From Escherichia coli (GTDB taxonomy: Bacteria; Pseudomonadota; Gammaproteobacteria; Enterobacterales; Enterobacteriaceae): 64,000 bases of DNA. Numbering within the stretch: the first letter of the stretch is position 1; the number at the start of each line of letters is the position of its first letter. Below the pieces are notes generated by a model, which was not told the DNA's origin, searched no databases, and saw only the letters and a list, made by a program, of their open reading frames with translations. Of this stretch, positions 4,509 to 38,953 are shown piece after piece. The stretch lies in assembly GCF_009931435.1 (NCBI RefSeq), contig NZ_CP043414.1. One strand, written 5' to 3'. The position numbers and the translations under genes were made by a program.

Positions 4509-5182
4509 CAAACGTTCTGATTGTTGAAGATGAACAGGCTATTCGTCGCTTTCTGCGCACGGCGCTGGAGGGTGACGGTATGCGCGTTTTTGAAGCCGAA
4601 ACGCTGCAACGGGGGCTGCTGGAAGCGGCGACTCGTAAGCCAGATTTGATTATTCTCGATCTCGGCCTGCCAGACGGTGATGGGATTGAGTTTATCCGCG
4701 ACCTGCGCCAGTGGAGCGCGGTGCCAGTAATTGTGCTTTCCGCCCGCAGCGAAGAGAGCGACAAAATCGCCGCGCTGGATGCCGGAGCGGATGATTACCT
4801 GAGTAAGCCATTTGGCATTGGTGAATTGCAGGCCCGTCTGCGCGTCGCATTACGCCGCCACTCCGCCACCACCGCGCCCGAGCCGCTGGTGAAATTTTCC
4901 GATGTTACCGTCGATTTAGCTGCCCGCGTGATTCACCGCAGTGAGGAAGAGGTGCATCTCACCCCGATTGAATTCCGCCTGCTGGCGGTGCTACTCAACA
5001 ATGCCGGAAAAGTGCTCACCCAGCGCCAGCTTCTCAACCAGGTGTGGGGACCAAACGCGGTCGAACACAGCCACTATTTGCGTATTTATATGGGGCATCT
5101 GCGACAAAAACTGGAGCAAGATCCCGCCCGCCCTCGCCATTTTATTACTGAAACCGGTATTGGGTATCGGTTTATGCCATGA
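4505..5182 (+). CDS. kdpE: response regulator KdpE
   Basis: ORF track 4505..5182, 225 aa; GTG start overlapping kdpD stop (GTGA); receiver domain plus OmpR-type winged helix. Confidence 0.93.
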   Translation: MTNVLIVEDEQAIRRFLRTALEGDGMRVFEAETLQRGLLEAATRKPDLIILDLGLPDGDGIEFIRDLRQWSAVPVIVLSARSEESDKIAALDAGADDYLSKPFGIGELQARLRVALRRHSATTAPEPLVKFSDVTVDLAARVIHRSEEEVHLTPIEFRLLAVLLNNAGKVLTQRQLLNQVWGPNAVEHSHYLRIYMGHLRQKLEQDPARPRHFITETGIGYRFMP

Positions 5183-5227
5183 ATTATTATTCAATAAATA
5201 CGCTTAACTAATTATTAATTTATTATT

Positions 5228-5270
5228 AAACCTGCCCCGAAAATTATTATTTGGCAGGTTTAATTTCTTA
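5228..5270 (+). terminator. hairpin with large loop followed by T-rich tract downstream of kdpE
   Basis: aaacctgcc ... ggcaggttt inverted repeat then aatttctt; AT-rich context. Confidence 0.4.
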
Positions 5271-5456
5271 ATGAAAATATAACCTACGAAATTGCAACAT
5301 TTAAACAACAAAACAGCATCTAATATGGCGCTATTCATAATTAACGATTTATTATTTGGGGTGTGATCGTTTTTTGTTGATCTTCTTCACAGTTTATAGC
5401 CTTTTCATGGATAGAATAACTCTACCTTCAACTGACACAGCAAAAGGTAAAGGTAA

Positions 5457-5561
5457 ATGGAAAATAATAACCGCTTAATGCCTCATATAAGGCGGACAAC
5501 CCATATCATGAAGTTTGCCCATCGTAATAGTTTTGACTTTCATTTCTTTAATGCCCGTTAG
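5457..5561 (+). CDS. speFL: speF leader peptide SpeFL (34 aa, ornithine-sensing arrest peptide)
   Basis: Not in ORF track (below size cutoff). ATG 5457 to TAG 5559-5561 translates MENNNRLMPHIRRTTHIMKFAHRNSFDFHFFNAR; sits ~310 nt upstream of speF. Confidence 0.85.
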   Translation: MENNNRLMPHIRRTTHIMKFAHRNSFDFHFFNAR

Positions 5562-5871
5562 TCTTCTGACTAAAGGGCACCCCAGCGTACAGGTCTCCCT
5601 GACTTTAAGCATTACAGGTTAATACCTGTATCCCTCGGTGCTCATATACTGCTAACCCTTTTAAACTCTAAATAATTCAAGTCGCAGCACTAGCAACTTG
5701 AAGTATGACGAGTATAGCCAGTTACCGGGCTGGTCTGGGTTATTGCATCTGCAAAAAGCAAACTACTGATTTATTTATCAGCGGTGGAGTTTTGCTTTTT
5801 TTCCGGCGTGATCGATTTCTCCTTTGAGAAATTGAGGACCTGCTATTACCTGAAATAAAGAGATGAACAAA

Positions 5872-8070
5872 ATGTCAGAATTAAAAATTGCCGTTAGTCG
5901 TTCTTGCCCGGATTGTTTTTCCACTCATCGTGCATGCGTGAATATTGACGAAAGTAATTATATTGACGTTGCCGCCATTATTTTATCAGTCAATGATGTT
6001 GAACGTGGAAAACTCGATGAAATAGACGCTACTGGCTATGGCATTCCTGTTTTTATTGCAACGGAAAATGAAGAACGTGTACCAGCAGAATATCTGCCAC
6101 GTATTACTGGTGTCTTCGAGCATTGCGAATCACGGAAAGAATTTTACGGACGTCAGTTAGAAACCGCCGCCAGCCATTATGAAACGCAGCTGCGCCCGCC
6201 CTTCTTCCGCGCACTGGTCGATTATGTCAATCAGGGCAATAGCGCTTTTGACTGCCCGGGTCATCAGGGGGGTGAGTTTTTCCGTCGCCATCCGGCAGGC
6301 AATCAGTTCGTGGAATATTTTGGCGAAATGCTCTTCCGCTCCGACTTGTGTAATGCCGACGTAGCAATGGGCGATCTACTGATTCATGAAGGTGCGCCAT
6401 GCATTGCACAGCAACATGCGGCTAAAGTGTTTAATGCCGATAAAACGTACTTTGTTTTAAACGGCACCTCCTCTTCCAACAAAGTGGTTTTAAACGCCCT
6501 GCTAACACCGGGTGATCTGGTGCTGTTTGACCGCAATAACCATAAGTCTAACCACCACGGGGCCTTGCTACAGGCTGGTGCAACACCGGTTTATCTGGAA
6601 ACAGCACGTAACCCGTATGGTTTTATCGGTGGTATTGATGCGCACTGCTTCGAAGAAAGTTATCTGCGTGAACTGATTAGAGAAGTTGCACCGCAACGGG
6701 CAAAAGAGGCGCGTCCGTTCCGCCTCGCTGTGATTCAGTTAGGCACCTACGACGGTACTATTTATAACGCCCGCCAGGTGGTGGATAAAATCGGTCATCT
6801 GTGTGACTACATCCTGTTTGACTCAGCATGGGTCGGCTATGAACAGTTTATTCCGATGATGGCGGACTGTTCGCCGCTGCTACTGGAGCTTAATGAGAAC
6901 GATCCGGGTATTCTGGTTACGCAATCTGTACATAAGCAGCAGGCTGGTTTTTCTCAGACTTCACAAATTCATAAAAAAGACAGCCATATCAAAGGGCAAC
7001 AGCGTTATGTACCGCACAAACGCATGAACAACGCCTTTATGATGCACGCCTCCACCAGCCCGTTCTATCCGCTGTTTGCCGCACTGGATATTAACGCCAA
7101 AATGCATGAAGGTGTCAGCGGTCGTAATATGTGGATGGATTGTGTGGTTAACGGTATTAATGCCCGCAAATTGATCCTCGATAACTGCCAGCACATTCGT
7201 CCGTTCGTTCCTGAACTGGTGGATGGTAAACCCTGGCAATCGTATGAAACAGCGCAAATTGCGGTTGATCTGCGCTTCTTTAAATTTGTACCCGGTGAGC
7301 ACTGGCATTCTTTTGAAGGTTACGCAGAGAATCAATACTTTGTCGATCCGTGCAAACTGTTGCTGACAACCCCAGGTATTGATGCACGTAACGGCGAATA
7401 CGAAGCGTTCGGTGTACCCGCGACGATTCTTGCTAACTTCCTGCGCGAAAATGGCGTAGTGCCGGAAAAATGCGATCTTAACTCCATCCTCTTCCTGCTG
7501 ACTCCGGCAGAAGATATGGCCAAACTGCAGCAACTTGTTGCCCTGCTGGTACGCTTCGAAAAACTACTGGAAGCTGATGCGCCTCTGGCGGAAGTATTGC
7601 CTTCCATCTACAAACAGCATGAAGAGCGCTACGCCGGTTATACCCTGCGTCAGTTGTGCCAGGAAATGCATGATTTGTATGCCCGTCACAACGTGAAACA
7701 ACTGCAAAAAGAGATGTTCCGTAAGGAACACTTCCCACGCGTCAGCATGAATCCACAGGAAGCCAACTATGCCTACTTACGCGGTGAAGTGGAATTGGTT
7801 CGTCTGCCGGATGCAGAAGGCCGTATCGCAGCCGAAGGTGCGCTTCCTTATCCTCCGGGTGTGCTGTGTGTTGTTCCGGGTGAAATCTGGGGTGGTGCTG
7901 TTCTGCGTTACTTCAGCGCTCTGGAAGAAGGGATCAACCTGCTGCCAGGTTTTGCACCGGAGCTGCAGGGTGTCTATATCGAAGAACATGATGGTCGTAA
8001 GCAAGTTTGGTGCTATGTCATCAAGCCTCGTGATGCGCAAAGCACCCTGTTGAAAGGGGAAAAATTATGA
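5872..8070 (+). CDS. speF: inducible ornithine decarboxylase
   Basis: ORF track 5863..8070; start placed at ATG 5872 (MSELKIAV...) with aaagag 9 nt upstream, 732 aa; PLP-dependent Orn/Lys/Arg decarboxylase fold-type I. Confidence 0.93.
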   Translation: MSELKIAVSRSCPDCFSTHRACVNIDESNYIDVAAIILSVNDVERGKLDEIDATGYGIPVFIATENEERVPAEYLPRITGVFEHCESRKEFYGRQLETAASHYETQLRPPFFRALVDYVNQGNSAFDCPGHQGGEFFRRHPAGNQFVEYFGEMLFRSDLCNADVAMGDLLIHEGAPCIAQQHAAKVFNADKTYFVLNGTSSSNKVVLNALLTPGDLVLFDRNNHKSNHHGALLQAGATPVYLETARNPYGFIGGIDAHCFEESYLRELIREVAPQRAKEARPFRLAVIQLGTYDGTIYNARQVVDKIGHLCDYILFDSAWVGYEQFIPMMADCSPLLLELNENDPGILVTQSVHKQQAGFSQTSQIHKKDSHIKGQQRYVPHKRMNNAFMMHASTSPFYPLFAALDINAKMHEGVSGRNMWMDCVVNGINARKLILDNCQHIRPFVPELVDGKPWQSYETAQIAVDLRFFKFVPGEHWHSFEGYAENQYFVDPCKLLLTTPGIDARNGEYEAFGVPATILANFLRENGVVPEKCDLNSILFLLTPAEDMAKLQQLVALLVRFEKLLEADAPLAEVLPSIYKQHEERYAGYTLRQLCQEMHDLYARHNVKQLQKEMFRKEHFPRVSMNPQEANYAYLRGEVELVRLPDAEGRIAAEGALPYPPGVLCVVPGEIWGGAVLRYFSALEEGINLLPGFAPELQGVYIEEHDGRKQVWCYVIKPRDAQSTLLKGEKL

Positions 8071-9386
8071 GTCAGGCTAAATCGAACAAAATGGGCGTCG
8101 TTCAGTTAACCATACTGACGATGGTCAACATGATGGGCTCCGGCATCATCATGCTGCCGACAAAGCTTGCCGAAGTTGGGACAATCTCAATAATCTCCTG
8201 GTTGGTGACAGCCGTAGGCTCAATGGCGCTGGCATGGGCATTCGCAAAATGCGGTATGTTCAGCCGTAAATCAGGCGGTATGGGCGGTTATGCCGAGTAT
8301 GCTTTCGGTAAATCCGGTAACTTTATGGCGAACTATACCTACGGCGTCTCGCTGCTGATTGCTAACGTGGCGATTGCTATTTCGGCAGTTGGTTACGGCA
8401 CCGAACTGCTCGGCGCGAGTTTGTCACCAGTGCAGATTGGTCTGGCAACCATCGGAGTGCTGTGGATTTGTACCGTGGCTAACTTTGGTGGTGCGCGCAT
8501 TACCGGGCAAATCAGTAGCATTACCGTGTGGGGGGTCATTATTCCGGTGGTAGGCCTGTGCGTTATCGGCTGGTTCTGGTTTAGCCCGACACTTTACGTT
8601 GATTCCTGGAATCCGCATCATGCACCGTTCTTCAGTGCGGTAGGTTCTTCCATCGCCATGACGCTGTGGGCTTTTCTTGGTCTGGAGTCTGCGTGTGCGA
8701 ATACTGATGTAGTGGAAAACCCGGAACGTAATGTGCCAATCGCGGTACTCGGCGGTACGTTAGGTGCGGCGGTGATTTATATCGTCTCCACCAACGTGAT
8801 TGCCGGGATTGTGCCCAATATGGAGCTGGCAAATTCAACGGCACCATTTGGTCTGGCCTTCGCGCAAATGTTCACACCGGAAGTGGGTAAAGTCATTATG
8901 GCGCTGATGGTGATGTCCTGCTGCGGTTCACTGCTTGGCTGGCAGTTCACCATTGCCCAGGTGTTTAAATCTTCATCTGATGAAGGCTACTTCCCTAAAA
9001 TTTTCTCCCGTGTAACCAAAGTGGATGCACCGGTTCAGGGGATGTTGACCATTGTGATTATTCAGAGTGGATTGGCACTGATGACCATTAGCCCGTCACT
9101 GAACAGCCAGTTCAACGTGCTGGTTAACCTGGCCGTGGTGACCAATATCATTCCGTATATCCTGTCGATGGCGGCATTAGTCATTATTCAGAAGGTCGCC
9201 AATGTGCCACCATCAAAAGCGAAAGTAGCAAACTTTGTTGCCTTTGTTGGTGCGATGTACAGTTTCTATGCGCTGTACTCATCCGGGGAAGAAGCCATGC
9301 TGTACGGTTCCATCGTGACTTTCCTTGGTTGGACACTGTATGGTCTGGTATCACCACGCTTTGAACTGAAAAACAAACACGGTTAA
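8067..9386 (+). CDS. potE: putrescine-ornithine antiporter
   Basis: ORF track 8067..9386, 439 aa, 12 predicted TM segments, APC-family transporter; ATGA overlap with speF stop. Confidence 0.95.
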   Translation: MSQAKSNKMGVVQLTILTMVNMMGSGIIMLPTKLAEVGTISIISWLVTAVGSMALAWAFAKCGMFSRKSGGMGGYAEYAFGKSGNFMANYTYGVSLLIANVAIAISAVGYGTELLGASLSPVQIGLATIGVLWICTVANFGGARITGQISSITVWGVIIPVVGLCVIGWFWFSPTLYVDSWNPHHAPFFSAVGSSIAMTLWAFLGLESACANTDVVENPERNVPIAVLGGTLGAAVIYIVSTNVIAGIVPNMELANSTAPFGLAFAQMFTPEVGKVIMALMVMSCCGSLLGWQFTIAQVFKSSSDEGYFPKIFSRVTKVDAPVQGMLTIVIIQSGLALMTISPSLNSQFNVLVNLAVVTNIIPYILSMAALVIIQKVANVPPSKAKVANFVAFVGAMYSFYALYSSGEEAMLYGSIVTFLGWTLYGLVSPRFELKNKHG

Positions 9387-9404
9387 AAAAAGCGAAATAA
9401 AAAA

Positions 9405-9436
9405 GGGCGATTGAATGATCGCCCTTTCTGTTTGTT
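9405..9436 (+). terminator. rho-independent terminator after potE
   Basis: gggcgat / atcgccc stem with 6-nt loop followed by tttctgtttgtt. Confidence 0.7.
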
Positions 9437-9467
9437 GACAAAGAGTTCGTTATTTATGCCGCATCCG

Positions 9468-9610
9468 GCAGGTGTAGGGTCCAAACGCGGTCGAACACAG
9501 CAACTATTTGCGTAATTATATGAGGCATTTGCGACAAAAACTGGAACAGGATCTCGTCCGCCCCGCCATTTCATTACTGAAACCGGTATTGGGTATCGGT
9601 TTATGCTTTG
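9468..9610 (+). repeat. degenerate direct copy (~90% identity) of the last ~143 bp of kdpE (5038..5182), non-coding (premature TAG)
   Basis: By-eye alignment: caggtgtagggtccaaacgcggtcgaacacag...gaaaccggtattgggtatcggtttatgctttga versus kdpE 3' end caggtgtggggaccaaacgcggtcgaacacag...gaaaccggtattgggtatcggtttatgccatga; one 1-nt indel. Confidence 0.85.
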
Positions 9611-9734
9611 AAAAAAGTGGCAATGTATGGATAAAGTCATTTTTTATTCAAATATAAGGAACTTAATATTTAAAAAATGTCCCATACAATGCCTCATCAT
9701 AAATGACACCGTAGCACACAAGGAGCAAGTAGCG

Positions 9735-10385
9735 ATGCGTGAAGTGAGTCAGTTAGTAAATACTGAAGATTCAGCCTGGACAATAATCCAGAATTGGTTA
9801 AAAGAAGCCACAAACCATGCCGAACTCTTACCGGTTAATAAAGATTTAGCCGAAACCGCACTTTATCAATTACAGGTTACAACAAAATCACCGATGGGTG
9901 CGCTTGTCTATGGCTCCGGAGGTCTGCTGATTGATAACGGTTGGTTACGCATAGCAGGCTCTGGTCACCCCCGGTTACCACGAGATCCAGCAAGTTGGAC
10001 ACAACGCCCTGAATTCGCAAGCGTGCGGGCTTTACCCATCGCCGATGATGTCGCAGGGGGAATTTTTGCTCTTAATGGTGGCGATCTTGGGGAAGATACT
10101 GGCTGCGTTTATTATTTTGCGCCAGATACGCTGAGTTGGGAAAGTCTGGAGGTTGGATATTCTGAGTTTCTTCAGTGGGCATTATCCGGTGATTTAGATA
10201 CCTTCTATGAAAATGTACGCTGGCCGCAATGGCAAGAAGACGTAATAAAATTATCGGCAACGGAAGCCTTCACTTTCTACCCTTTCTTATGGGTACAAAG
10301 TGAAGAAGCAAGAACAAGAAAAGTTATTTCGCTTACTGAACTCTGGGAAATGCAGTATCAAATGAAAGAAACAATCACGCAATAA
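9735..10385 (+). CDS. DUF2625-family protein (YbfG-like), apparently intact
   Basis: ORF track 9627..10385; start placed at ATG 9735 (MREVSQL...) with aaggag 10 nt upstream, 216 aa; position corresponds to ybfG/ybfH locus. Confidence 0.7.
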   Translation: MREVSQLVNTEDSAWTIIQNWLKEATNHAELLPVNKDLAETALYQLQVTTKSPMGALVYGSGGLLIDNGWLRIAGSGHPRLPRDPASWTQRPEFASVRALPIADDVAGGIFALNGGDLGEDTGCVYYFAPDTLSWESLEVGYSEFLQWALSGDLDTFYENVRWPQWQEDVIKLSATEAFTFYPFLWVQSEEARTRKVISLTELWEMQYQMKETITQ

Positions 10386-10396
10386 GACATGTTCAG

Positions 10397-10428
10397 GTCC
10401 GGGTTTCATTCCCGGACTCGCTATTTTA
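10397..10428. terminator. hairpin between convergent genes (DUF2625 gene and ybfP)
   Basis: gtccggg tttcatt cccggac followed by tcgctatttt. Confidence 0.55.
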
Positions 10429-10920
10429 ATGTGTGTTTATCGCTTTCAATTCTTGCTGGCAATTTTCTGACTGACAGCGTCGCAACTCAATAATCCCGAC
10501 ATGCATCATCGAGCCAAAAAATCCGCTTTCGCTGACATAATCCTCATTAACTATCGGTCGAGTGCCGGGCTTACCCTGGCAAATCCCCATAAAAAATGAG
10601 GTGTAGCATTGCCATTCAGGATTTAAACCGGTCTTTTCTTGTGCTGACATATCATGAAGATAAGTAAGTTCTTTTTCGTTCCCGCCTGACAACTGCCAGC
10701 GGCGGGTATTATCAGGTAAGTTATCGCCACGGCAATTTGTCTTACACCGGGAAGGCGCAATATTTACCGCAATGCTACCCGTTAATCCTCTGGTTTTATC
10801 TTTAGGGGTCAGTAACCAGTCACCAGCTAATGATGATTGTTCAGGTTGGGCGCATGCTGTCAGCAGTAGTGTGGCGGTAATTAATGCCACTCTGACGACC
10901 AGACTCCTTTTGGTCTTCAT
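10426..10920 (-). CDS. ybfP: lipoprotein YbfP
   Basis: ORF track 10426..10971; start placed at ATG 10920 (MKTKRSLVVRVALITATLLLTAC), lipobox LTAC, 164 aa. Confidence 0.85.
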   Translation of the reverse strand: MKTKRSLVVRVALITATLLLTACAQPEQSSLAGDWLLTPKDKTRGLTGSIAVNIAPSRCKTNCRGDNLPDNTRRWQLSGGNEKELTYLHDMSAQEKTGLNPEWQCYTSFFMGICQGKPGTRPIVNEDYVSESGFFGSMMHVGIIELRRCQSENCQQELKAINTH

Positions 10921-10968
10921 TCGGAATTCCCTTGAGCTATTCAGTTTGTTGGCAAAGTACTCGTTGTT

Positions 10969-11075
10969 CATGCCGGATGCGGCGTGAACGCCTTATCCGT
11001 CCTACAAAATAGTGCAAATTCAATATATTGCACCATCCTCGTAGGCCTGATGAACGTAGCGTATCAGGCTATCAT
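10969..11075. repeat. BIME / REP palindromic units
   Basis: tgccggatgcggcgtgaacgccttatcc ... gtaggcctgatgaacgtagcgtatcaggc, canonical REP consensus in inverted pair. Confidence 0.85.
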
Positions 11076-11123
11076 AAGTAAAAAGGGCGATCTTCCGACC
11101 GCCCTTTTTCTTATTTAATGTGT

Positions 11124-29688: not shown

Positions 29689-29765
29689 GGCTACGTAGCT
29701 CAGTTGGTTAGAGCACATCACTCATAATGATGGGGTCACAGGTTCGAATCCCGTCGTAGCCACCA
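29689..29765 (+). tRNA. metT: tRNA-Met (CAU, elongator)
   Basis: 77-nt cloverleaf ggctacgtagctcagttggttagagcacatcactCATaatgatg...cgtagccacca with encoded CCA. Confidence 0.97.
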
Positions 29766-29773
29766 TCTTTTTT

Positions 29774-29858
29774 GCGGGAGTGGCGAAATTGGTAGACGCA
29801 CCAGATTTAGGTTCTGGCGCCGCAAGGTGTGCGAGTTCAAGTCTCGCCTCCCGCACCA
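29774..29858 (+). tRNA. leuW: tRNA-Leu (UAG)
   Basis: 85-nt gcgggagtggcgaaattggtagacgcaccagattTAGgttctgg... long variable arm, CCA end. Confidence 0.97.
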
Positions 29859-29881
29859 TTCACCAGAAAGCGTTGTACGGA

Positions 29882-29956
29882 TGGGGTATCGCCAAGCGGT
29901 AAGGCACCGGTTTTTGATACCGGCATTCCCTGGTTCGAATCCAGGTACCCCAGCCA
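29882..29956 (+). tRNA. glnU: tRNA-Gln (UUG)
   Basis: 75-nt tggggtatcgccaagcggtaaggcaccggtttTTGataccgg...ccccagcca. Confidence 0.97.
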
Positions 29957-29990
29957 TCTTCTTCGAGTAAGCGGTTCACCGCCCGGTTAT

Positions 29991-30065
29991 TGGGGTATCG
30001 CCAAGCGGTAAGGCACCGGTTTTTGATACCGGCATTCCCTGGTTCGAATCCAGGTACCCCAGCCA
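29991..30065 (+). tRNA. glnW: tRNA-Gln (UUG)
   Basis: Identical 75-nt copy of the UUG tRNA-Gln. Confidence 0.97.
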
Positions 30066-30080
30066 TCGAAGAAACAATCT

Positions 30081-30157
30081 GGCTACGTAGCTCAGTTGGT
30101 TAGAGCACATCACTCATAATGATGGGGTCACAGGTTCGAATCCCGTCGTAGCCACCA
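30081..30157 (+). tRNA. metU: tRNA-Met (CAU, elongator)
   Basis: Second 77-nt copy identical to metT. Confidence 0.97.
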
Positions 30158-30205
30158 AATTCTGAATGTGTCGAATGCGTTCGGCAAATTCACAAACCAA
30201 TTTGT

Positions 30206-30280
30206 TGGGGTATCGCCAAGCGGTAAGGCACCGGATTCTGATTCCGGCATTCCGAGGTTCGAATCCTCGTACCCCAGCCA
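30206..30280 (+). tRNA. glnV: tRNA-Gln (CUG)
   Basis: 75-nt tggggtatcgccaagcggtaaggcaccggattCTGattccgg...ccccagcca. Confidence 0.97.
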
Positions 30281-30317
30281 ATTTATTCAAGACGCTTACC
30301 TTGTAAGTGCACCCAGT

Positions 30318-30392
30318 TGGGGTATCGCCAAGCGGTAAGGCACCGGATTCTGATTCCGGCATTCCGAGGTTCGAATCCTCGTACCCCAGCCA
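30318..30392 (+). tRNA. glnX: tRNA-Gln (CUG)
   Basis: Second identical CUG tRNA-Gln copy. Confidence 0.97.
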
Positions 30393-37875: not shown

Positions 37876-38784
37876 ATGCAATTACGTAAACCTGCCACAG
37901 CAATCCTGGCCCTGGCGCTTTCCGCAGGCCTGGCACAGGCAGATGACGCCGCCCCGGCAGCGGGCAGTACGCTGGACAAAATCGCCAAAAACGGTGTGAT
38001 TGTCGTCGGTCACCGTGAATCTTCAGTACCTTTCTCTTATTACGACAATCAGCAAAAAGTGGTGGGTTACTCGCAGGATTACTCCAACGCCATTGTTGAA
38101 GCAGTGAAAAAGAAACTCAATAAACCGGACTTGCAGGTGAAACTGATTCCGATCACCTCACAAAACCGTATTCCGCTGCTGCAAAACGGCACTTTCGATT
38201 TTGAATGTGGTTCAACCACCAACAACGTCGAACGCCAAAAACAGGCGGCTTTCTCTGACACTATTTTCGTGGTCGGTACGCGCCTGCTGACCAAAAAAGG
38301 CGGCGATATCAAAGATTTTGCCGACCTGAAAGGCAAAGCCGTAGTCGTTACTTCCGGCACTACCTCTGAAGTTTTGCTCAACAAACTGAATGAAGAGCAA
38401 AAAATGAATATGCGCATCATCAGCGCCAAAGATCACGGTGACTCTTTCCGCACCCTGGAAAGCGGTCGTGCCGTTGCCTTTATGATGGATGACGCTCTGT
38501 TAGCCGGTGAGCGAGCGAAAGCGAAGAAACCAGACAACTGGGAAATCGTCGGCAAGCCGCAGTCTCAGGAAGCCTACGGTTGCATGTTGCGTAAAGACGA
38601 TCCGCAGTTCAAAAAGCTGATGGATGACACTATCGCTCAGGTGCAGACCTCCGGTGAAGCGGAAAAATGGTTTGATAAGTGGTTCAAAAATCCAATTCCG
38701 CCGAAAAACCTGAACATGAATTTCGAACTGTCAGACGAAATGAAAGCACTGTTCAAAGAACCGAATGACAAGGCACTGAACTAA
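37876..38784 (+). CDS. gltI: glutamate/aspartate ABC transporter periplasmic binding protein
   Basis: ORF track 37801..38784; start placed at ATG 37876 (MQLRKPATAILALALSAGLAQA signal peptide) with aaggag upstream, 302 aa. Confidence 0.94.
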   Translation: MQLRKPATAILALALSAGLAQADDAAPAAGSTLDKIAKNGVIVVGHRESSVPFSYYDNQQKVVGYSQDYSNAIVEAVKKKLNKPDLQVKLIPITSQNRIPLLQNGTFDFECGSTTNNVERQKQAAFSDTIFVVGTRLLTKKGGDIKDFADLKGKAVVVTSGTTSEVLLNKLNEEQKMNMRIISAKDHGDSFRTLESGRAVAFMMDDALLAGERAKAKKPDNWEIVGKPQSQEAYGCMLRKDDPQFKKLMDDTIAQVQTSGEAEKWFDKWFKNPIPPKNLNMNFELSDEMKALFKEPNDKALN

Positions 38785-38789
38785 TTACA

Positions 38790-38941
38790 AGAACCAGGGG
38801 CGGAAATTCCAGCCCTCTCGATTGTTACGTAGCACGGACAGACTATACGCCTGATGGTCGTTCCCCATCGGGCCTGAAAACCGCAATACGCTGGGTAACA
38901 ATCTTCGAGGGTAGCAGTTAACGCTGCTACCCTCTTTTTTC
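38790..38941 (+). ncRNA. sroC: sRNA SroC region (gltI 3' end / gltI-gltJ spacer), ending at an intra-operon terminator
   Basis: 169-nt spacer between gltI and gltJ ending in gagggtagcag ttaacg ctgctaccctc + T7 (38907..38941); 5' boundary not determinable from sequence alone. Confidence 0.5.
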
Positions 38942-38953
38942 TGGAGTAGATTT

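Follow-up and report, generated by a model that had tools for sequence, protein, structure and literature searches.

The Tdi proteins of Bacteroidales (Tdi1 and Tdi2) and of Agrobacterium (Atu4351/Tdi1) confer immunity to Ntox15 DNase effectors (Tde) of type VI secretion systems (T6SS), and orphan Tdi genes protect recipient bacteria (PMC10470768). For Tox-ComI toxins, the immunity partners listed by Zhang et al. 2012 (PMC3482391, Table 2) are Imm-ComJ and Imm-SUKH, the latter being the SUKH superfamily (SMI1/KNR4, YobK, Syd, and RhsPI) of Zhang et al. 2011/2012. Here we describe ybfG, a DUF2625-family gene at positions 9735..10385 (+ strand) of a 64,000-nucleotide stretch of Escherichia coli DNA (contig NZ_CP043414.1; the whole stretch is called the window below), and compare it with these systems. 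The gene is intact in the window and inactivated in K-12, and its predicted product may be an immunity-type protein.

The window region corresponds to the E. coli kdp, speF, potE, pgm, and seqA stretch. The maximal open reading frame (ORF) in the ORF listing runs from 9627 to 10385 on the + strand (252 codons plus stop). We place the coding sequence (CDS) of ybfG at 9735..10385 (216 codons plus TAA, 651 nt), because the N-termini of homologues from many phyla align at the Met encoded at 9735 ('MRxLxELIN') and because RefSeq annotates in sister strains a 651-nt CDS that begins at the corresponding position. A start at ATG 9627 was ruled out on the same two grounds; the long start (252 aa) is used in one old record, that of ATCC 8739. 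In hidden Markov model (HMM) searches the product matched Pfam DUF2625 (PF10946) with E=1.4e-86 and 289.3 bits against a cut-off of 27 bits, protein residues 5–202 aligning to profile positions 2–206 of 207, and it matched the NCBIfam equivalog NF008494 (PRK11408) end to end (1–216 of 216) with 503 bits against a cut-off of 278. An uninterrupted 216-codon frame from ATG 9735 with AAGGAG upstream, and membership of the DUF2625 family, had both been proposed in the first-pass annotation, and both are borne out by the sequence, the ORF list, and the HMM searches. Neither an internal stop, nor a frameshift, nor a truncation relative to full-length homologues was found in the window gene. It is practically certain that 9735..10385 is an intact E. 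coli ybfG allele, monocistronic, and encodes a 216-aa cytoplasmic DUF2625 protein.

The first-pass annotation had further held that K-12 carries disrupted ybfG/ybfH fragments at this position, owing to a frameshift, and that the window appears to retain the functional ancestral gene. A disruption at the same position is indeed present: the K-12 RefSeq genome flags a same-length 651-nt stretch as a pseudogene with 'internal stop', and in MG1655, identical in sequence to the other K-12 copy, it is a single pseudogene, ybfG (b0691), which covers all 651 nt and lies between potE and ybfP/pgm. A separate ybfH feature is absent from the current MG1655 record, in which the neighbours are the pseudogene ybfI (b4636) and ybfP. 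The frameshift was excluded, since both alleles are 651 nt long, no indel was detected in a codon-by-codon comparison, and the inactivating lesion is an in-frame amber codon: codon 70 (9942..9944, +) is TGG (Trp) in the window and TAG in K-12, a change of window nt 9943 from G to A. A second K-12-specific lesion is located at codon 109 (10059..10061, +), GGA (Gly) in the window and GTA (Val) in K-12. The window and MG1655 share the order potE, ybfI, ybfG, ybfP, pgm and 96.5% nucleotide identity over the gene, and their 23 nucleotide differences arise because the window haplotype is a different, SMS-3-5-like one; from its nearest intact allele, WP_001208814.1, the K-12 sequence differs by two changes in all, W70amber and G109V. 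W70 is conserved in 90% of the family and G109 in 100% of 48 non-E. coli homologues, and the replacement of the invariant G109 fits decay after inactivation. We are thus all but sure that K-12 ybfG is a derived null allele (W70amber plus G109V) and that the state seen in the window is ancestral. The claim of an ancestral gene is upheld by the conservation of W70 and by the prevalence of TGG among carriers, whereas for a functional one the support is indirect and comes from the substitution ratio and the conserved positions considered below.

The distribution of the gene was surveyed in 5,426 complete E. coli genomes, with the locus counted as present at a coverage of at least 80%. It occurs in 1,771–1,839 of them (about one third) and is missing from ~66%. 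Codon-70 alleles were counted by megablast with haplotype-specific 31-mers centred on that codon, exact alleles only. TAG in the K-12 haplotype was found in 364 genomes, overwhelmingly K-12 laboratory derivatives, and TGG in 1,284 genomes with an A/B1-type haplotype and in 129 with the window haplotype, SMS-3-5 among them, so that 1,413 of the ~1,777 carriers (~80%) have TGG. Both TGG haplotypes encode intact orthologues of 216 aa, and their locus, flanks, and signals are those of the window. The allele closest to that of the window is WP_001209503.1 (SMS-3-5, ~129 genomes), which differs from the window protein by T16P, S134N, and S189C with zero synonymous changes; WP_001208814.1 (BL21-type, ~1,284 A/B1-type genomes) differs from it at 11 residues, and the differences from both alleles are all at family-variable positions. 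Of the A/B1-type carriers, five were sampled at random, and all five encode a protein identical to WP_001208814.1. NCBI already has the exact window protein, under the name 'DUF2625 domain-containing protein', from 178 contigs (for example EGO5102883.1). Disruptions other than that of K-12 comprise an IS1 truncation in one genome, picked for its differing annotation name, IS200-associated breaks, and many truncated protein clusters. Intact ybfG is already known and ordinary, being recorded in databases for more than 1,400 complete genomes, and the rarity that the first-pass annotation implied does not hold: most carriers have the gene intact, and its annotation is routine. By itself the finding of an intact gene matters little, and the functional lead developed below is the only part worth following. 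As a separate observation, a 1.9-kb contig binned as an actinobacterium (JAIJJM010000630.1, L030, 'MAG: Collinsella sp.', a metagenome-assembled genome) carries a YbfG with 95% identity to that of E. coli, and the contig almost certainly reached the bin as E. coli contamination.

DUF2625 proteins were found by pattern scan in at least 572 species, mostly Bacteroidota, and also in Enterobacterales, Burkholderia, Xanthomonas, Comamonas, one Clostridium, and one Acidobacteria genome. Their identity to the E. coli protein is 43–57%, with 25 invariant columns, many of them polar. Measured against 48 non-E. coli homologues, the window protein keeps 25 of 25 invariant columns and, of the 57 positions with a conservation of at least 90%, 53. 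An AlphaFold2 model of YbfG was obtained with a mean predicted local distance difference test (pLDDT) score of 90.8 and a predicted template modelling (pTM) score of 0.89, and the predicted structure has the alpha+beta fold of SUKH proteins. In the structural comparison the canonical SUKH proteins scored 8.9 (Lin2918), 7.9 (YobK), 7.4 (BF1740), 6.1 (PSPTO_5518), 6.0 (Knr4), 4.7 (Syd), and 4.6 (RhsPI). The top 22 Foldseek matches consisted of the same set of structures, with Tdi2 and Tdi1 at template modelling (TM) scores of 0.56–0.62 over ~212 columns. At the sequence level, SMI1_KNR4 was matched below threshold (E=0.019, 16 bits against a cut-off of 25.4) in 3 of 50 family members over residues 90–134, and SUKH_6 weakly (E=0.074) in 1 of 50. 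The SMI1_KNR4 match covers the block ADDxxGG(I/F)FxLNGG, which we take to be a generic structural core motif of SUKH domains. Because of the structural matches together with the sub-threshold SMI1_KNR4 match, DUF2625 is assigned on the strength of the model to the SUKH-superfamily fold, the Tdi immunity proteins being its closest match in predicted structure. Sequence searches did not place it among the Tdi proteins, as none of 50 family members matched the DUF1851 or GAD-like Pfam families at E<=10.

Some DUF2625 members occupy the cognate immunity position directly after ComI-type DNase toxin modules. In Clostridium homopropionicum (locus L071), the gene for an RHS-repeat toxin of 1,605 aa, which ends in a DNase_NucA_NucB domain containing a DE motif, stops 34 nt short of a DUF2625 gene. 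The product of this DUF2625 gene shares 45% identity with the window protein, and beyond the gene lie an orphan Rhs C-terminal module and small genes. When the toxin domain of this locus was used as a query, short polymorphic-toxin cassettes were recovered in Rhs, filamentous haemagglutinin, and PT-HINT contexts, which shows the domain to be a widespread module of polymorphic toxins, and three cassette-bearing loci were examined. At the first (L113), an orphan NucA/NucB toxin cassette lies downstream of a 2,566-aa Rhs protein and a DUF2625 gene follows 10 nt later. At the second, in Pseudomonas (L110), the ComI-type cassette is followed by ComJ, and at the third, in Rodentibacter (L111/L112), by an unrelated 181-aa gene. 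DUF2625, being SUKH-like, and ComJ after ComI-type cassettes agree with the partner list of Zhang et al. 2012. A co-oriented DUF2625 gene just downstream of a toxin module was thus seen at L071 and L113, and not in the window. Other members of the family lie in mobile or island-like surroundings: a Flavobacterium copy is part of an immunity-island-like array with SUFU, DUF2314, and DUF6620 genes, a Citrobacter copy adjoins a DUF596 gene, a Pedobacter copy adjoins a conjugative element, and a Yersinia copy lies within a genomic island.

Several further features of these loci were recorded. The Rhs C-terminal fragment at 6214–7560 of the Clostridium locus bears an alternative toxin tip and is followed by genes for small membrane or unknown proteins. 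The Rodentibacter locus is a contact-dependent inhibition (CDI) locus with Deam_C, Scabin-like, NucA/NucB, and GH-E cassettes, and small genes stand downstream of every one of these; its 181-aa gene was considered as a divergent DUF2625 and ruled out, no HMM match being obtained. The Clostridium and Rodentibacter loci are typical orphan toxin/immunity arrays.

Based on the predicted fold and these placements, YbfG would be a Tdi-like, immunity-type binding protein of SUKH fold. It would bind, and thereby neutralise, the nuclease domain of a toxin that competitors deliver by Rhs/T6SS, CDI, or a similar polymorphic-toxin system, most plausibly a DNase of the ComI type (Pfam DNase_NucA_NucB). The E. 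coli gene would then be an 'orphan' immunity gene, one without an adjacent cognate toxin. In agreement with such a status, the window gene encodes a homologue of the Clostridium protein that stands in the cognate position, lies away from any toxin gene, and sits in a variable segment of the chromosome. Orphan immunity status would explain the dispensability of the gene, its patchy distribution, and its easy loss, as in K-12. The reading we favour, with confidence a little short of even, is that YbfG serves E. coli as an orphan protein of the immunity type and has a ComI-type or similar nuclease toxin as its binding partner. The wider proposal, that DUF2625/YbfG forms an unrecognised and unusually conserved SUKH/Tdi-like branch of immunity to ComI (NucA/NucB)-type DNases, kept as a stand-alone 'orphan' shield in about one third of E. 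coli and lost in K-12, we put forward somewhat more tentatively still.

Several observations weigh against an immunity function. In a survey of gene neighbours, limited to the 80 loci closest to the query, of which 78 were usable, a ComI-type toxin adjoined the DUF2625 gene in a single locus and was lacking in the other 77, a count in which divergent toxin-linked subfamilies such as that of L113 (32% identity) are under-sampled. The 423 neighbouring ORFs fell into 279 clusters, 229 of them singletons, and the immediate neighbours matched 135 Pfam families, mostly housekeeping and none present in more than 8 loci. In E. coli, no toxin gene is adjacent to ybfG, the neighbours of which are potE, the kdpE remnant, and the convergent ybfP; a NucA/NucB-type toxin was not found anywhere in the 64-kb window. 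Identity between phyla is 45–55%, unusually high for an immunity protein. The four departures of the E. coli protein from conserved positions (S61, A74, P101, and I110) are common to all E. coli alleles, and at position 74 every other homologue has L. Several Bacteroidota proteins (P0086, P0099, P0101, and P0109) carry ~20–25 extra N-terminal residues resembling a signal peptide, with a hydrophobic stretch followed by A/S-Q and the usual Met start kept internally; going by their sequences, they could be exported forms or mis-called starts, and signal-peptide-like forms are a misfit with the neutralisation of a DNase in the cytoplasm. YbfG matched no known defence system in PADLOC, PDB sequence searches, whether by the protein alone or by a profile of the family, gave chance-level matches only, and no mention of DUF2625 or PF10946 was found in the main text of the literature searched, nor of DUF2625 in one text supplement of Zhang et al. 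2012. Literature matches to 'ybfG' were incidental gene lists or the unrelated ybfG of B. subtilis.

The main rival explanation gives YbfG, as a SUKH-fold protein, an endogenous function in protein binding or regulation that has nothing to do with interbacterial toxins, and it regards the toxin-linked members as rare co-options. Most members stand alone in heterogeneous and largely housekeeping neighbourhoods, with toxin linkage lacking in 77 of the 78 surveyed loci, and the 25 residues invariant across phyla suggest one partner or ligand that is itself conserved, and not a toxin interface under rapid evolution. Syd, Knr4, and FBXO3, all found among the structural matches, are not immunity proteins, and precedents exist in Syd, which binds SecY, in yeast Knr4, and in the widespread Tdi5b fold. 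Tdi5b is widespread, rarely toxin-linked, and occasionally co-opted (PMC13392607), which is exactly the pattern that an endogenous role predicts, and the signal-peptide-bearing Bacteroidota forms also speak for such a role. However, two independent placements of the toxin-immunity type (L071 and L113) argue against it. A core cellular role also sits ill with a gene that about two thirds of E. coli lack and that is null in K-12, where this has no known phenotype, and no conserved operon partner indicates a pathway, such a partner having been ruled out by the survey of 78 genomes; the recurrent Pfam neighbours reflect within-genus synteny. We consider an endogenous role less likely than not, and the two remaining explanations, functionless drift and an enzymatic or ligand-binding role, less likely still.

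That E. coli ybfG is a functionless remnant drifting to loss, of which the window allele is merely a copy not yet hit, appears improbable. The absence of the locus from ~66% of genomes, the independent disruptions described above, and the E. coli substitutions at four otherwise conserved positions are what such drift would leave, as are the three amino-acid and zero synonymous changes that separate the window allele from its closest relative. Intact alleles of the window type and of the A/B1 type differ by 10 synonymous and 10–11 non-synonymous changes, which gives a Nei-Gojobori omega (ratio of non-synonymous to synonymous rates) of ~0.27–0.30; by the same method, when the window is compared with K-12, omega is 0.007 in potE, 0.006 in pgm, 0.053 in speF, and 0.23 in ybfP, and the value of ~0.3 for ybfG lies 6- to 50-fold above the flanking genes. 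On the other hand, omega is significantly below 1 (binomial P ~0.009 for the synonymous excess over the neutral expectation), and the replacements between intact alleles all fall at family-variable positions, unlike K-12 G109V. In addition, WP_001208814.1 is unchanged in all of the sampled A/B1-type carriers, TGG at codon 70 persists in ~80% of carriers, and the ribosome-binding site and terminator are intact. Omega lies above that of the flanking genes yet below neutrality, and the constraint on ybfG is real but relaxed, as an accessory gene would be expected to show.

That DUF2625 is instead an enzyme or small-molecule binder, in which polar residues invariant in 50 diverse sequences (T50, S52, D67, R72, R83, D104, D105, N114, Y158, W163, and W166) make up the catalytic or ligand-binding site of a SUKH-like scaffold, is very improbable even if some Bacteroidota members do appear exported, as no catalytic SUKH-fold protein is found among the structural neighbours, no metabolic gene is consistently linked, and the ADDxxGG(F/I)FxLNGG block is presumably generic SUKH core, judging from the weak SMI1_KNR4 match.

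If the orphan-immunity reading is true, laboratory K-12 would be specifically sensitive to a class of interbacterial DNase that many wild strains resist, a possible reason for differences between K-12 and wild strains in interbacterial competition assays. The fold match and the two Rhs-NucA/NucB contexts provide a concrete and cheaply testable hypothesis for an uncharacterised y-gene.

The interval between kdpE and pgm (~5180–11120), in which ybfG lies, has at least four layouts across E. coli. The window and K-12 carry speF-potE together with the kdpE remnant, ybfG, and ybfP; in O157, speF-potE is followed immediately by pgm; in a third layout, kdpE is followed by ybfP and pgm, without speF-potE and without ybfG; and in O145, pgm immediately follows kdpE. 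Because of these layouts, ybfG is placed in a recombination-prone segment that varies in presence and absence. The remnant of the kdpE 3' end is located at 9463..9612 (+), where RefSeq annotates a pseudogene ('winged helix-turn-helix ... missing N-terminus'), and it is the equivalent of K-12 ybfI, the MG1655 copy of which maps to window 9463–9611 with 92.7% identity. The last ~145 nt of kdpE including its stop (5039–5183) are directly repeated at 9469–9612 with 89–92% identity, and the repeats bracket speFL-speF-potE. This arrangement resembles a scar left when the speF-potE cassette came to lie beside kdpE, and the ~10% divergence between the repeats suggests an old duplication or an import from another lineage.

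Other features of the interval were noted as well. The acid-inducible ornithine decarboxylase/antiporter operon speF-potE is itself variably present. Between the window and K-12, speF (5872–8070) shows 140 synonymous differences and a dS (synonymous substitutions per synonymous site) of 0.35, against 0.14 for potE and 0.13 for pgm, which suggests that the speF allele is recombinant or divergent. The lipoprotein gene ybfP (10426..10920, − strand; 164 aa, lipobox LLLTAC) is convergent to ybfG in the same variable segment and evolves fast (omega 0.23, 10–11 replacements relative to K-12). YbfP matched no Pfam, NCBIfam, or PADLOC family, and the exact 181-aa translation of the long ybfP ORF was not found in the protein collection. 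As a functional partner of ybfG it is unlikely, since it is convergent and occurs without ybfG in some genomes. The terminator hairpins of potE (9400–9432) and pgm (11080–11112), AAAAAGGGCGAT...CGCCCTTT, are 76% identical; their likeness may be due to chance or to a repeat common to both edges of the variable segment.

Upstream of ybfG, the in-frame extension of the maximal ORF (9627..9734, +; 36 codons) is AT-rich and without homology, and is most likely untranslated, containing a promoter-like site and the ribosome-binding site. As read from the sequence, the Shine-Dalgarno motif AAGGAG (9720–9725, +) is separated from ATG 9735 by a 9-nt spacer. By consensus match, a candidate sigma-70-like promoter (TTAATA, 16 nt, TACAAT; 9663..9690, +) lies 45 nt upstream of the ATG; it has 9 of 12 matches, and the region contains 6 such sites against 3.1 expected, which makes the candidate weak. 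Downstream, a GC-rich hairpin resembling an intrinsic terminator with a T-rich tail, GGTCCGGG...CCCGGACT, lies at 10396..10428 (+) between the convergent ybfG and ybfP. Rfam detected no structured RNA within 9400–10450. The only Rfam match nearby was the small RNA ES036 (CssrF) at 11006–11048 (+), with 45.5 bits against a gathering score of 37.6, in the ybfP-pgm intergenic region, where it overlaps the area of the terminator-like hairpin of pgm. Elsewhere, a whole-window Rfam scan identified a seven-tRNA cluster (29689–30389) and sroC (38780–38942, 174.8 bits), both unrelated to ybfG.

Compared with the described systems, YbfG shares with the Tdi proteins a predicted fold and differs from them in sequence, the solved Tdi structures being only 11–14% identical to it. 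The toxin partner also differs, being Ntox15 for Tdi and of the NucA/NucB (ComI) type beside DUF2625 genes, none of which, in the loci examined, had an Ntox15 gene as neighbour. The Tdi proteins act by insertion into the toxin core, which they split. The Tde5/Tdi5 system (PMC13392607) was rejected as a direct match to DUF2625. Relative to the SUKH superfamily, DUF2625 has a greater size and additional helices at both termini; its conservation across phyla far exceeds that of typical Imm-SUKH proteins, and it usually has no linked toxin. ComJ/Nin, which inhibits the competence nuclease ComI/NucA of B. subtilis, belongs to a family (PF11033) unrelated to DUF2625 but takes the same position after a ComI-type cassette in Pseudomonas, and it would be the functional analogue of the DUF2625 proteins.

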